A stretch of 64,000 nt of DNA from Fluviicola sp. (GCA_043584915.1 CP121319.1:2863228-2927227), one strand, 5' to 3'. Shown: positions 1 through 8,143, counted from the first letter of the stretch. Notes: generated by a model not told the origin, from the sequence alone. A program made the numbers and translations.

Positions 1-153
1 CTATTAAGCGAGCAAATAATCCAATAACTAACGTAATCAATTTTGCCAATCCGAACTCCATTGCTTTGGCAACACCAGCCACATCTCCACGAGCCAATGC
101 CAGAATTGCCTCTGTAATGGCAGGGATGAGCATGATAGCCGACTCCACAAAGA

Positions 154-190
154 TGAGAAGTACTACTTCGAAAGGGAACGGAAAGTGACC
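154..190. repeat. Short palindrome-bearing insertion, copy 1
   Basis: 37 nt absent from the paralogous site in the main gene (about 4836). Contains the palindrome gaagta-c-tacttc and the 16-mer ggaacggaaagtgacc (175-190). Confidence 0.7.
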
Positions 191-3908: not shown

Positions 3909-6900
3909 CTTATTTGTTTTTTAATTTGTTTAAATTTAATAATTCCTCTTTTGGAAAGTTCCAATAAATTTTTTGGTGCATTTGGATCGTCAATAACATT
4001 TTGAAAGTCTTCAATTAGCTTGTCGATTTGAGCTCTCGCTCCTGTCATGGCATTGTCATCTCCAAACATATTATCGACTTTTCGTTGGGCAATTTTTAGA
4101 TCTTTTTTTGATGCTGATTTCATATCAGCTGTTCTTATCCATGTAGCCTTACCACCCACGAGATTTAGTTTGGCTTCGGTTACTTTTTTTCCATTCACCT
4201 CAATATTTGCGTGTGGACCTTTCACACGGACATCATCAAAAATATAACCTTGCATTTTTGCCTCGGAGTTCTTAATAACTTTTTTAAATTTCGGTCTATC
4301 ATCTTCCGGGTTAACCTTACCATGGATATGATATGTGATTTCTTGACCGCTATCCTTATCCTTTATAAGTTTTAGTTCTTTTAAGTCGTATTTTTTCCTA
4401 AGGCTTTTGAGCTTTTTATTGATTGCATCTTCATCATTCTCCTCTTTTTTAGAGAATTCTTGACCTTGATTTAAAGCATTGTCCAAATCAGCTTTCTTCT
4501 CCTTATCAGATCTTGGGTCTTCTTTATCATTACCTTTTTTGTTTTTCTTCTTCTTTCGGAAAAGTTTTCTAGCAGCTTTCTTCGCCTTCATCAGCAACTT
4601 GCGAATGGCTCTATCGATTCTCTTACGAATCTTCTTAAAGATTTTCCCAACCTTCTTAGCCAAGCCATTCAAGCCTATTAAGCGAGCAAATAATCCAATC
4701 ACGAGCGTAATTAATTTCGCCAATCCGAACTCCATTGCCTTCGCTACACCCGCAATATCTCCACGAGCCAATGCCAAAATCGCCTCCGTAATTGCAGGGA
4801 TGAGCATGATAGCCGACTCGACAAAGAACACGATGATGTCTTTGATGGCCATAATTGCCTTAATGAATCCAGCGCCAGGAATGAGAAGACTAAGCAACCA
4901 TTTTATTCCTGCCTCCAATACTTTGGCGATAAGCATGTCTTTGATGGCATCAATGACCATGGATTTGATGTCCTGGAACTTGTCTTTCACGTATTTCCAG
5001 ATTCCCATGGCGCCTTCGGTTGCGAAGACCTTGAACATGGTAAAGCCAGTCATGAGGGCATTTACGACAGGTTCGCCCATCATTTTCACGGCTTTGAGCT
5101 TGATGTAATCCCAACCGAGTCCAAGGACTTGTAAGGTAAGGTCAAAGACGCCACTGAGACTGAATATATCGTTTGGCATTTGGATGCCCATTGGTCCGAG
5201 GGAGCCCGTAAGCCATTCCAGTAATCCTCCGAGAAGGTGTTTCTGAATGTTGGCTTTGAACATATCGAATCCTTTGCCAATTCCATCGAAAAGCGTTCCC
5301 ATGAAGCCAATAGGGTCGGCCATGATGATTCCAATCACGCTGGCAATTGCTGAGAGCATGTCGGAGATTACTTGCTTCAGTTTCTTGATGGTTTCAATGA
5401 TCCCGTTGATCATGTCCATCGCTTTGGCAATAAGACCTTTGTTGGCCTCTTTCATCTCTTCGATGCGCGCATCCACTTCTTCCAGACTTGCCACGTATTC
5501 CTCAGCGATCATGTCCACAAGGTCGTCTTGCTTGCTGCTTACGTCTTCGTTGAGTTCTTCAAACTTATCGTTGATTTCCGCCGCGGCTTCTTTACCAACT
5601 TGCTTTAATTTTGGATCGAGTCCCTCAACGTAATCAGTAACACTTTGTTTCCCGTCTTCGACGCGTTGTTTTGCGGCGGTTAAATCTTTGGCGACTCTGT
5701 TGGCAATTTTGGTCACCAACTTATCCATCCAATTGATGTAAACTTTACGTCCTTCAACGTAAATCTTGTTTACCTCATCTGGAAGACCAGCTGCGGCATC
5801 GTACAACCATACAAAAACACCTCCGGCATGACCGTAACGTCTCCATTTGTATCTGGACATTTCACGCTCACAATACTTCTCGAACTGGTCTTTTGCTTTC
5901 TCTGCTCCAGTTTCAAACTCAGTAGATACCCAGCTGTCTAAATCATCTAAAATGCCGTGAACCTCCGTTTTGGTTGTTTCGTAAATTGTATTGATGTCGT
6001 TGGCCACTTTTTCGCGCTCGGAAGTATCTTTTTCTCCCGTTGCTTTTTGATTGCCTACTACCTTTTTAATGGAAGAGCCACGCATCACATTCATGGCTTG
6101 CAATTCTTCTTCGCTCTTTCCTTGCGTTTTTGCGGCGTTGCCTTCTAGAATTCCTTGCTCTTGTTGACGGAGCGCTTTCGGTGCTTCAACTGAATTTTTC
6201 TTCGCCGTTTTCTTCTCGTCAAGACCTGCAATGAATGATGGTTCTTCGGAGTTCGCCAATTGCTCATCGGTAACGTCATTTTCGGCCATTTTGCGATCCA
6301 TCTCAGATGCATCGTCTGCAAGCGGTTTGCTCACCTCAGACTCTGGGCGTGGTTTTGGAACGGCTCCTGCAGTATCAATTTTCTTCGGCTTTTTGCCTTT
6401 TTTCGGTTGTTTGAGTTTGGCTACCTTTCGTTTTTCGGCTTTGCCTGTATCCGGATCATCATTTGAAACTTCAACAACTGGACCTGCGGCTTGTGCTTGC
6501 TCTTTGCTTACATCGCCTTCCAATCCTGCGTTAATTTCATCTACGTTGGTATGCTTGTCGAAATCATCTGCCTCTTCTTCATTTTTAGGCATTTTCATTT
6601 CGGCAATGGCATCCATAACCTTCGCTTTAAAAGCTACTGCGTCGAATTCTTGTGGCGGTGTTTCGCTCATTTCCTCCACGTGATCTTCTTGAGCCGTTCC
6701 CATGACTTCATTGTCGGCAATTGGGGCAGCTTCTTGTGCGGCGTCCTGGAGTTGTTTGGCAGGCTCGTGCTTTGTTTGTTTCTTGGATTCAACCGCCAAC
6801 TGCTGCGTTACTGCCAAGAAATCTGGATCTTCTTTCGGATTGCGTTTCGCTTTCTTTTCCGCTTTTTTCTCCTCTTTCTCCTTTTTCTTGTCTTCCTTCT

Positions 6901-8143
6901 TTTTGGCTTTTTCGGCTGCCTTGGTGGCTTTTGCAACCGCTTTTACCTCTTCTTTTTCAAGTTTAACCTCTTGTTTGGCGGATTTTCTTTCTGCTCGGGC
7001 TGTTTTTCTATCTGCTTTTTTCTCTGCTCTCGCTTCTTTTCGGGCTGCACGCTTTTCTTTGCGCGACATCTTGCCAGGCTCAACGGCTCCTTGTTGTAAG
7101 GTATGCGTTAATTCGTGTGCGAGTAGTGTTTGTCCTTCTTTGCTTTCTGGATCGTATTGCCCTTCGTTGAAGTAGATATCAGCACCGTTGGTAAATGCCT
7201 TGGATCCTAAATCCTGGTTCATTTCAACCGATTTCGAGTCGGTATGGATGTTAACGCCGCTTAAATCGGTGCCAAATCCTGATTCCATTTTCGATTGCGT
7301 ATTGGAATCCATTTTGCTTCCGCCTCCTTTGGAAGATTTAAGGTTGGAAGCAACGTTGTTTTTCTTGTTTTTGCGATTGTTCTTGAACTTGGCTTGCACA
7401 TCCGAAGCGGACATGGTGTCAATTTCGTCTGATTGCAATTGCACGTCAGAATCATCCTCCGACATAGTCTGCACTTCGCTTGCTTCGTCTGACATAGTCT
7501 GCACCTCAGAATCGTCTTCGCTTTTAGCTTGCACATCCGAAGCGGACATGGTGTCAATCTCGTCTGACATCATCTGCACTTCGTTTTCTTCGGCAGACAT
7601 AGTCTGCACTTCGCTTGCTTCGTCTGACATAGTCTGCACCTCAGAATCGTCCTCCGACATCATTTGAACCGGTTCTTCTTCCGAACCTTTCTCCATCATC
7701 TGCACTTCGCTTGCTTCGTCTGACATAGTTTGCACATCAGAATCGTCTTCGCTTTCCATCTGTACAGATTCATCTTCATCCGCGCCCATTTCCATGCGCT
7801 GAATTGGTTTCGCCTGCACTTCGCTGTCACTTACCGTCTCTTGTTCCATTTGGACATCCTCATCCGGCTCGCTCATTTTTTGCAAGTCGGTAGGGCCAAC
7901 CTTCATGGTTTGGATGGGTGGAGCAGGGGCTTTCTGAACATTAGGCTCGGTATTCTTATTGACAACTTTGTCAGCTACAGCATCGGCTTCTTTCTCAAAT
8001 TTATCGTTTGTTTGACCAATTTTTAATTTTGCTTGAATACCCGCATTTTGCCCTTGACGCTTGAGTACGAAGGGTTTTTTAGCTTGCTGCTGCTGTTGCT
8101 GCGGATGATGCCCAGAATGTTGTTGTTGCTTTGGTGCTAACAA
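3905..8143 (-). CDS. DUF4157-type eCIS-associated polymorphic toxin (1,412 aa)
   Basis: Zn-metallopeptidase-like DUF4157 signature (GADIYFNEGQYDP...LLAHELTHTLQQG). Also carries acidic tandem repeats, a Lys/Glu-rich region, a long hydrophobic multi-helix region, a poly-Lys linker and a variable C-terminal domain. It is the last gene of the eCIS operon. Confidence 0.85.
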   Translation of the reverse strand: MLAPKQQQHSGHHPQQQQQQAKKPFVLKRQGQNAGIQAKLKIGQTNDKFEKEADAVADKVVNKNTEPNVQKAPAPPIQTMKVGPTDLQKMSEPDEDVQMEQETVSDSEVQAKPIQRMEMGADEDESVQMESEDDSDVQTMSDEASEVQMMEKGSEEEPVQMMSEDDSEVQTMSDEASEVQTMSAEENEVQMMSDEIDTMSASDVQAKSEDDSEVQTMSDEASEVQTMSEDDSDVQLQSDEIDTMSASDVQAKFKNNRKNKKNNVASNLKSSKGGGSKMDSNTQSKMESGFGTDLSGVNIHTDSKSVEMNQDLGSKAFTNGADIYFNEGQYDPESKEGQTLLAHELTHTLQQGAVEPGKMSRKEKRAARKEARAEKKADRKTARAERKSAKQEVKLEKEEVKAVAKATKAAEKAKKKEDKKKEKEEKKAEKKAKRNPKEDPDFLAVTQQLAVESKKQTKHEPAKQLQDAAQEAAPIADNEVMGTAQEDHVEEMSETPPQEFDAVAFKAKVMDAIAEMKMPKNEEEADDFDKHTNVDEINAGLEGDVSKEQAQAAGPVVEVSNDDPDTGKAEKRKVAKLKQPKKGKKPKKIDTAGAVPKPRPESEVSKPLADDASEMDRKMAENDVTDEQLANSEEPSFIAGLDEKKTAKKNSVEAPKALRQQEQGILEGNAAKTQGKSEEELQAMNVMRGSSIKKVVGNQKATGEKDTSEREKVANDINTIYETTKTEVHGILDDLDSWVSTEFETGAEKAKDQFEKYCEREMSRYKWRRYGHAGGVFVWLYDAAAGLPDEVNKIYVEGRKVYINWMDKLVTKIANRVAKDLTAAKQRVEDGKQSVTDYVEGLDPKLKQVGKEAAAEINDKFEELNEDVSSKQDDLVDMIAEEYVASLEEVDARIEEMKEANKGLIAKAMDMINGIIETIKKLKQVISDMLSAIASVIGIIMADPIGFMGTLFDGIGKGFDMFKANIQKHLLGGLLEWLTGSLGPMGIQMPNDIFSLSGVFDLTLQVLGLGWDYIKLKAVKMMGEPVVNALMTGFTMFKVFATEGAMGIWKYVKDKFQDIKSMVIDAIKDMLIAKVLEAGIKWLLSLLIPGAGFIKAIMAIKDIIVFFVESAIMLIPAITEAILALARGDIAGVAKAMEFGLAKLITLVIGLFARLIGLNGLAKKVGKIFKKIRKRIDRAIRKLLMKAKKAARKLFRKKKKNKKGNDKEDPRSDKEKKADLDNALNQGQEFSKKEENDEDAINKKLKSLRKKYDLKELKLIKDKDSGQEITYHIHGKVNPEDDRPKFKKVIKNSEAKMQGYIFDDVRVKGPHANIEVNGKKVTEAKLNLVGGKATWIRTADMKSASKKDLKIAQRKVDNMFGDDNAMTGARAQIDKLIEDFQNVIDDPNAPKNLLELSKRGIIKFKQIKKQIS
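7392..7760. repeat. In-frame acidic tandem repeats inside the toxin gene
   Basis: A ~135-bp higher-order unit is repeated (7392-7432 matches 7527-7567; 7461-7516 matches 7597-7652). It contains ~21-24-bp subrepeats encoding S(E/D)D(D/A)SEVQTMS. Confidence 0.8.

Follow-up and report, generated by a model that had tools for sequence, protein, structure and literature searches.

Truncated toxin cassettes behind an extracellular contractile injection system operon of Fluviicola sp. probably record serial replacement of a toxin C-terminus

The DUF4157 domain was named PVC-metallopeptidase by Zhang et al. (2012, PMC3482391), who counted the Photorhabdus virulence cassette (PVC) system as one of the routes by which polymorphic toxins are delivered, inferred that toxin cassettes recombine, and found many PVC toxins to be without immunity genes. 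The same domain served Geller et al. (2021, PMC8213781) as a marker for toxins of extracellular contractile injection systems (eCIS), and the absence of immunity genes struck these authors as puzzling. In the archaeon Halogeometricum borinquense, secretion of DUF4157 proteins depends on a contractile injection system (CIS), and some of these proteins are toxic and are neutralised by a downstream gene (PMC11566945). The DNA described here, hereafter called the window, is the whole analysed stretch of 64,000 nucleotides (nt) from Fluviicola sp. (GCA_043584915.1, CP121319.1:2863228-2927227). It contains a complete eCIS operon, closed at its 3' end by a gene coding for a DUF4157 protein of 1,412 amino acids (aa), the main toxin. 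The locus is best explained as the polymorphic-toxin end of this operon, and the DNA downstream of the main toxin gene, which holds 5'-truncated toxin cassettes, probably records serial replacement of the toxin C-terminus.

A reading made earlier from the nucleotide sequence alone (the sequence-only reading) had proposed that the DUF4157 protein is built as a polymorphic toxin, with a helix region, a linker, a short KYxLKxL...GKVNP segment and a variable tip, and that a small open reading frame (ORF) is coupled to its gene. All of these parts were located, and a constant body, linker and variable tip together with the linkage to eCIS genes bear out the proposal. The features of the gene are the following.

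3905-8143, minus strand: full-length eCIS toxin gene, 1,412 aa, recognised by its ORF, a PF13699 match and homologues with a common body and a differing C-terminal domain
7088-7312, minus strand: DUF4157 or eCIS core (PVC-metallopeptidase) domain, with the HELTH motif at 7103-7117
4589-6046, minus strand: conserved helical body, aa ~700-1185, 30-67% identical to 70 homologues
4532-4588, minus strand: poly-basic linker KAKKAARKLFRKKKKNKKG, aa 1186-1204, the first polymorphism boundary
4307-4531, minus strand: pre-toxin module, aa 1205-1279 (~75 aa), which ends in GKVNP, the second polymorphism boundary
3908-4306, minus strand: C-terminal domain A, the current tip, ~133 aa, presumed from its position to be the toxin
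3450-3908, minus strand: small ORF A, 152 aa, presumed immunity gene, whose start overlaps the toxin stop codon (TTGA)

The Pfam match to PF13699 (eCIS_core, formerly DUF4157) covers aa 278-352 with E = 4.6e-28. Hydrophobic, membrane-like helices were found in the body at aa ~1070-1162 (nt 4658-4936) with Kyte-Doolittle windows. The linker was taken as a boundary because DNA identity to the downstream cassette o2 drops just 3' of it and because it holds the last conserved columns of the protein alignment. The KYxLKxL...GKVNP segment, which reads KYDLKELKL...HGKVNP in the main toxin, lies at aa 1251-1279 and is also present in o2. N-terminal to the DUF4157 domain, acidic tandem repeats with units of ~10 aa (e.g. 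SDEASEVQTM) are encoded at 7389-7777 on the minus strand; the N-termini of homologues are acidic too.

Downstream of the main toxin gene and ORF A, the remnant of a tip, two truncated cassettes and two further small ORFs follow on the same strand. L126 in the list is one of the related metagenomic loci compared below.

3159-3272, minus strand: remnant of a displaced C-terminal domain B, 37 codons, with the in-frame reading GSEETTSTPNILRIRKNRDNRTFHGFPIDSKTGGKIF followed by a stop codon
2619-3146, minus strand: small ORF B, 175 aa, with a homologue in L126, presumed immunity gene retained after loss of domain B
1137-2424, minus strand: orphan cassette o2, with a 5'-truncated body, linker, pre-toxin module and C-terminal domain C, recognised by its repeat match to the main gene
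742-1137, minus strand: small ORF C, 131 aa, presumed immunity gene, in TAATG overlap with the o2 stop codon
1-650, minus strand: orphan cassette o3, a 5'-truncated body fragment running off the window, recognised by its repeat match to the main gene

The sequence-only reading had already listed a 37-codon tip remnant and a small ORF next to it, then a cassette truncated at its 5' end that is of high DNA identity and carries an unrelated tip, the small ORF after that cassette, and a third truncated copy at the edge. Each was recovered, the remnant at 3159-3272 and thus slightly off the place where one might have looked for it. Direct-repeat search and pairwise alignment gave 91% DNA identity between 2217-2424 of o2 and 4635-4842 of the main gene, and 85% between 2071-2174 and 4527-4630, similarity ending just past the linker. 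The o3 fragment (1-650) aligns with 4675-5238 of the main gene in five blocks of 89-97% identity. Domain C of o2, ~240 aa long and preceded by its own pre-toxin module, is unrelated to the tip of the main toxin.

The orphan copies diverge from the main gene by 7-10%. Third codon positions account for 30 of the 38 differences in o3 and for 23 of the 31 in o2, and synonymous codon changes outnumber non-synonymous ones by 28 to 6 and by 25 to 3, respectively. Since the differences are mostly synonymous, the arms of o2 and o3 diverged inside working genes and hence came from other alleles. The same pattern excludes that the repeats, which lie near the edge of the window, are an artefact of assembly or duplication, the outcome that the sequence-only reading had itself named as fatal to it; the different C-terminal domains, the insertions unique to single copies and the recurrence of the layout in independent assemblies leave that explanation a negligible probability. 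A diversity-generating retroelement was also considered and rejected, as the substitutions are of all types without adenine bias and the Pfam scans of the window found no reverse transcriptase.

Like the polymorphic toxins of the PVC secretion system and of eCIS (PMC3482391, PMC8213781), the main toxin has an N-terminal DUF4157 domain, a long linker region, a variable tip and a place at the operon's 3' end, and its relatives share Ntox15, Tox-REase-7, AHH and WHH tips with known PVC/eCIS toxins. Unlike the toxins described in those two studies, many of which are said to have no immunity gene beside them, each tip here is accompanied by a small ORF coupled to it, and behind the main gene stand truncated cassettes, arrays of which neither study describes. 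The archaeal pairs are separate full-length genes of a cell-bound CIS similar to type VI secretion systems (T6SS; PMC11566945), whereas the cassettes in the window are truncated. The locus has in common with Rhs systems carrying orphan rhs-CT/rhsI arrays a constant body, a tip after a demarcating motif, a coupled presumed immunity gene, and downstream 5'-truncated orphans that keep a stretch of core homology, and displaced tips; it differs from them in that delivery would be by eCIS and not by T6SS or toxin complex (Tc), and in that a poly-basic linker and GKVNP form the boundary in place of PxxxxDPxGL. The CdiA-CT/CdiI orphan modules of contact-dependent inhibition systems, which can serve for tip exchange, are similar in being pairs downstream of the full gene with short upstream homology; their junction is the VENN motif, and the junction here is of a different kind. 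In the Pfam scan of the 1,412-aa protein only PF13699 was matched; YD/RHS repeats, the RHS core motif and two-partner secretion (TPS) or FHA families were absent, while CdiB and VENN were not searched for. Given the lack of YD/RHS, TPS and FHA domains, the main toxin would work in the manner of Rhs and CdiA proteins as a member of neither family.

The sequence-only reading knew of no characterised orphan-cassette arrays for eCIS payloads. That much stood, as no explicit description of such arrays was found in the open-access literature; the polymorphic, cassette-recombining nature of PVC/eCIS toxins, on the other hand, has been in the literature since 2012 (PMC3482391). The swappable-toxin layout is ordinary in kind, and orphan arrays have apparently not been documented before for eCIS.

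The architecture recurs in relatives. A search with the C-terminal 713 aa of the main toxin as query found 70 homologues; their body is common as far as KAKKAxRKL, and their C-terminal-most domains vary. The related loci described here come from metagenomes. The domains after the linker are Ntox15, Tox-REase-7, AHH, WHH, Endonuclease_NS_2 or unrecognised, which amounts to at least five Pfam toxin domains, and many of the 70 homologues are short, 5'-truncated products. In locus L001 the tape measure gene is followed by a 1,476-aa DUF4157-Ntox15 toxin gene, a GAD-like/T6SS_Tdi1_C gene and two orphans, of 766 aa and then 714 aa, both accompanied by a small ORF of their own. Ntox15 (Tde) and Tdi1 are known from experiments to pair as toxin and immunity protein. 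A full-length gene followed by a truncated copy was found in L124 and L126, and the contig fragments L128 and L129 contain 2-3 copies each. L123 has an island of five toxin-body fragments (7300-17300) among SUKH, Imm11, ankyrin (Ank) and leucine-rich repeat (LRR) genes, with no eCIS operon within 10 kb. Tdi1-like, SUKH, Imm11, Ank and LRR genes occupy the position of the immunity gene in relatives. In L001, a stretch of ~250 nt (6213-6461 and 9659-9914) is common to both orphans and lies upstream of where their homology to the main gene sets in, forming a cassette-specific leader.

Correspondences between tips of different loci connect the remnant in the window with a full-length toxin elsewhere. 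The full-length DUF4157 toxin of L126, of 1,367 aa, is encoded downstream of a tape-measure gene, from which another DUF4157 gene and a 259-aa ORF separate it, and ends in RIRIRKNKDNKFFHGFPIDSRTAGKIF before its stop codon. The remnant in the window, ILRIRKNRDNRTFHGFPIDSKTGGKIF up to the stop, aligns with this end at 71% identity over 34 aa; the tip of the L126 toxin is the one that survives here as 37 codons. Beginning 8 nt after the L126 toxin gene is a 171-aa ORF, 59% identical over 168 aa to the ORF at 2619-3146 of the window. As an active tip and its partner in L126 match the remnant and ORF B, this comparison documents at the level of sequence one past C-terminal replacement at this locus type, in which the presumed immunity gene of the old tip was kept. 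The first orphan of L001 has a tip that matches, at 63% identity over 247 aa, the one of the full-length gene in L125. The sequence-only reading had suggested comparing relatives for swapped C-termini, and differing tips after the same linker, together with these L126, L001 and L125 correspondences, answer to that suggestion.

The pre-toxin module is common to o2, P0035, P0006, the L126 orphan and the distant P0074 and P0081, and the domains that follow it differ or are only remotely related. The module is itself shuffled, and the junctions are thus two and nested, the first behind the linker and the second behind GKVNP. Domain C was found in P0071, which is the annotated o2 product itself, and in 22 remote, uncharacterised relatives; in two long relatives that were examined the body is of the same family and has domain C as its C-terminal end. 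Comparison with L126 showed no conservation of the spacer that separates ORF B from o2, which indicates that the cassette junctions arose independently.

A course of events that would account for these observations begins with the arrival, by horizontal transfer, of cassettes of a new tip and its partner as parts of diverged alleles. Such cassettes would recombine with the resident gene through the conserved body or the linker, and the old tip would be displaced downstream or mostly deleted. The coupled small gene presumably neutralises the tip in the producer cell. Tip B may have been cut to 37 codons while its partner stayed intact under selection for protection against neighbours firing tip B, and o2 and o3 would be 5'-truncated copies from other alleles, whose silent 5' arms were later invaded by a ~40-nt hairpin element. 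Cassette o2 may still be able to donate its tip, only through a linker stretch of ~90 nt. We infer in this scheme that the tips are toxic, that their partners give immunity, that the main toxin is loaded into the eCIS, and that recombination took the direction and mechanism given.

Several results weigh against this explanation. Domain A has no homologue and no match in Pfam, NCBIfam or PDB sequence searches, and ORF A has no detectable relatives and no family match in Pfam or NCBIfam. Domain C has no match in Pfam, NCBIfam or PDB sequence searches, nor in a PDB search with a domain C profile. No recognisable immunity or toxin family is matched by ORF A, ORF B or ORF C, and the AlphaFold2 (AF2) models of domains A and C from single sequences were unusable, with mean confidence (pLDDT) of 52 and 39. 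The toxicity of the tips and immunity by the small ORFs are therefore presumed from position and by analogy. By these sequence comparisons, two tips without characterised relatives lie in one window. The ATPase gene of the operon is broken (see below), so that the eCIS here may not load cargo normally. The related loci are also distant, their tape measures being ~30-35% identical, and hence document no recent switching event. A relation of the KGVGTxMF motif to GNAT acetyltransferases would be a guess and not a result.

The sequence-only reading had regarded the orphans as a stockpile for C-terminal switching, that is, as donors kept ready for tip exchange with the main gene by homologous recombination. 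What held of this is the past replacement evident from L126. The DNA identity of 85-97% between the orphan arms and the main gene, the intact frame of domain C in o2, the intact small ORFs and a 32-nt exact match in the linker 3' of the last o2 insertion would all suit an active stockpile. The readiness of the donors, however, is weakened by the state of the arms. The body copy in o2 is split by an insertion of net 38 nt, leading to a stop codon, and in o3, compared with the main gene, three stretches have been inserted (net +37, +39 and +34 nt) and 24 nt deleted; with four insertions and one deletion in the arms, any exchange 5' of them would carry a frameshift or a stop codon into the main gene. 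Downstream of the last o2 insertion only ~90 nt remain, with the 32 nt as the single exact match. Furthermore, the first cassette (o1, the remnant with ORF B) has lost its toxin, no recombinant or recent exchange was seen, and the spacers between cassettes are not conserved with L126. An active stockpile is therefore rather unlikely. As their arms are broken by ~40-nt insertions, the orphans look today more like relics, partly decayed, with retained presumed immunity genes, than like a ready stockpile, in agreement with a record of serial tip replacement. The 24-nt deletion of o3, which is in frame (main gene 4947-4970, at 306/307 of o3), sits between two CATCAAA repeats of main-gene sequence and looks like slippage.

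It could also be supposed that an internal start allows translation of o2 into a small toxin of its own, or a decoy, acting together with its partner, in which case o2 would be no orphan. Gene callers annotated such a product in an NCBI genome (P0071, 304 aa, 100% identical to o2 from Met30), and the o2 ORF is intact with a coupled ORF downstream. Such a product would be without the DUF4157 domain and the whole of the body, which every full-length relative has, and the 340 nt upstream are clearly a disrupted copy of the body; stand-alone expression is accordingly considered very unlikely.

All four insertions in the orphan arms belong to one family of mini-elements, each of which replaces 3-6 nt of its target. 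The mini-element consists of GGTCACTTyCCGTTCCC (or a variant before CCGTT), a short spacer and a hairpin of 6-7 bp, the stems of which covary (GAAGTA/TACTTC, GAAGCA/TGCTTC, AGACGT/ACGTCT and GAAAGC/GCTTTC). A covariance model identified five copies, all within the orphan cassette DNA at 151-2467.

2423-2467, plus strand: mini-element abutting the 5' truncation point of o2 (covariance model, 38.9 bits)
2173-2218, plus strand: mini-element inside o2, splitting the reading frame (alignment to the main gene, covariance model)
480-524, plus strand: mini-element inside o3 (alignment to the main gene, covariance model)
372-416, minus strand: mini-element inside o3 (alignment to the main gene, covariance model)
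151-193, minus strand: mini-element inside o3 (alignment to the main gene, covariance model)

The model found no copy in the other 61.5 kb of the window, the main gene included, and none in the related toxin loci. Related copies occur in intergenic DNA of metagenome-assembled genomes (MAGs) of Crocinitomicaceae/Salibacteraceae (L007, L016, L042, L090 and L102). A scan of the genome collection with a 16-nt pattern of the mini-element was made with too short a pattern: ~115 of the 120 matches are attributable to chance, and 5-6 loci are real. The mini-element is not in Rfam, and Rfam gave no match in 1-9200. Pfam scans of the window found no transposase (Y1 included), integrase, recombinase or reverse transcriptase.

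The concentration of five copies in 2.5 kb of cassette DNA, against none in the remaining 61.5 kb, raises the question of whether the ~40-nt elements are the sites of a shufflon- or invertase-like switch of cassettes. Copies in opposite orientation stand on either side of 191-479, and one lies directly at the boundary of o2. The main gene, however, is without a copy, so that the expressed gene could not participate, and this makes a shufflon-like role unlikely. Neither recombinase nor transposase nor reverse transcriptase was found in the window, and in other Crocinitomicaceae MAGs the element turns up in ordinary intergenic DNA, while the related toxin loci have no copy of it. Site-specific rearrangement thus appears highly improbable, and the insertions fit better as later arrivals in cassettes left over from serial tip replacement.

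Repetitive extragenic palindromes (REP), bacterial interspersed mosaic elements (BIME) and very small miniature inverted-repeat transposable elements (MITEs) are, like the mini-element, short, hairpin-bearing, repeated and non-coding, and occur in both orientations. Unlike REP elements and MITEs, the mini-element has no terminal inverted repeats and no target duplication, 3-6 nt of the target being lost instead; and unlike REP sequences with their associated tyrosine transposases (RAYT), it has no RAYT or transposase found near it in the window. There is a slim chance that it represents a new, very small mobile or templated insertion that favours silent cassette DNA, controls which crossovers are productive and joins in truncation. 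The copy exactly at the o2 boundary suggests such a possible part in the truncation of the cassette. If this were true, the mini-element would cut the homology between orphans and main gene and decide which crossovers yield a working toxin. The clustering of the mini-elements and the broken ATPase gene are the less ordinary features of the locus.

The remainder of the eCIS operon lies upstream of the main toxin gene, on the same strand.

9099-27493, minus strand: eCIS structural operon, with genes for Pvc16_N, sheath, two tube proteins, spike, gp25, baseplate J, a PKD fibre-like protein and tape measure
8174-9069, minus strand: broken AAA+ ATPase gene of the eCIS, situated between the genes for tape measure and toxin, with its N- and C-terminal parts in different frames

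The tape measure was identified by a match to PF19268 (E = 1.2e-94), and the next gene upstream of the toxin is listed as a CIS tape measure. Compared with an intact paralogue at 37620-38912, the ATPase pseudogene is short by ~135 aa, including the Walker A motif. An intact AAA+ ATPase of the Afp15/Pvc15 type is absent from the operon itself, the intact paralogue being 28 kb away. The related loci L001 and L130 lack an ATPase gene at the corresponding place.

A second cluster, at 36254-50079 on the plus strand, encodes a sigma-70-like ORF, a 238-aa ORF, the intact eCIS-type AAA ATPase, five tandem paralogues of ~330-355 aa (ankyrin repeats being present in two of the five) and a 1,960-aa ORF that matches no Pfam family. 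The cluster may supply the eCIS with additional cargo or regulators. A KwaB-like protein (Kiwa anti-phage system, PF16162) is encoded at 29607-31164 on the minus strand; its start overlaps a 196-aa ORF without a Pfam match, which, as a guess from position, could be a putative KwaA partner. A 921-aa TPR-CHAT protease-like protein, encoded at 31920-34685 on the minus strand, adjoins a DUF7619 protein.

Most discussion of eCIS treats them as weapons against eukaryotes, and surveys in the literature describe many eCIS toxins without immunity genes. If the locus has been read correctly, the coupled partners, the displaced tips and the retained partners of orphans would point to the use of eCIS by bacterium against bacterium, among relatives. 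The constant body and linker (KAKKAxRKL, followed by the GKVNP module) offer a handle for harvesting pairs of toxin and immunity genes from Crocinitomicaceae-like genomes, and the junctions could guide the swapping of payloads in programmable eCIS.

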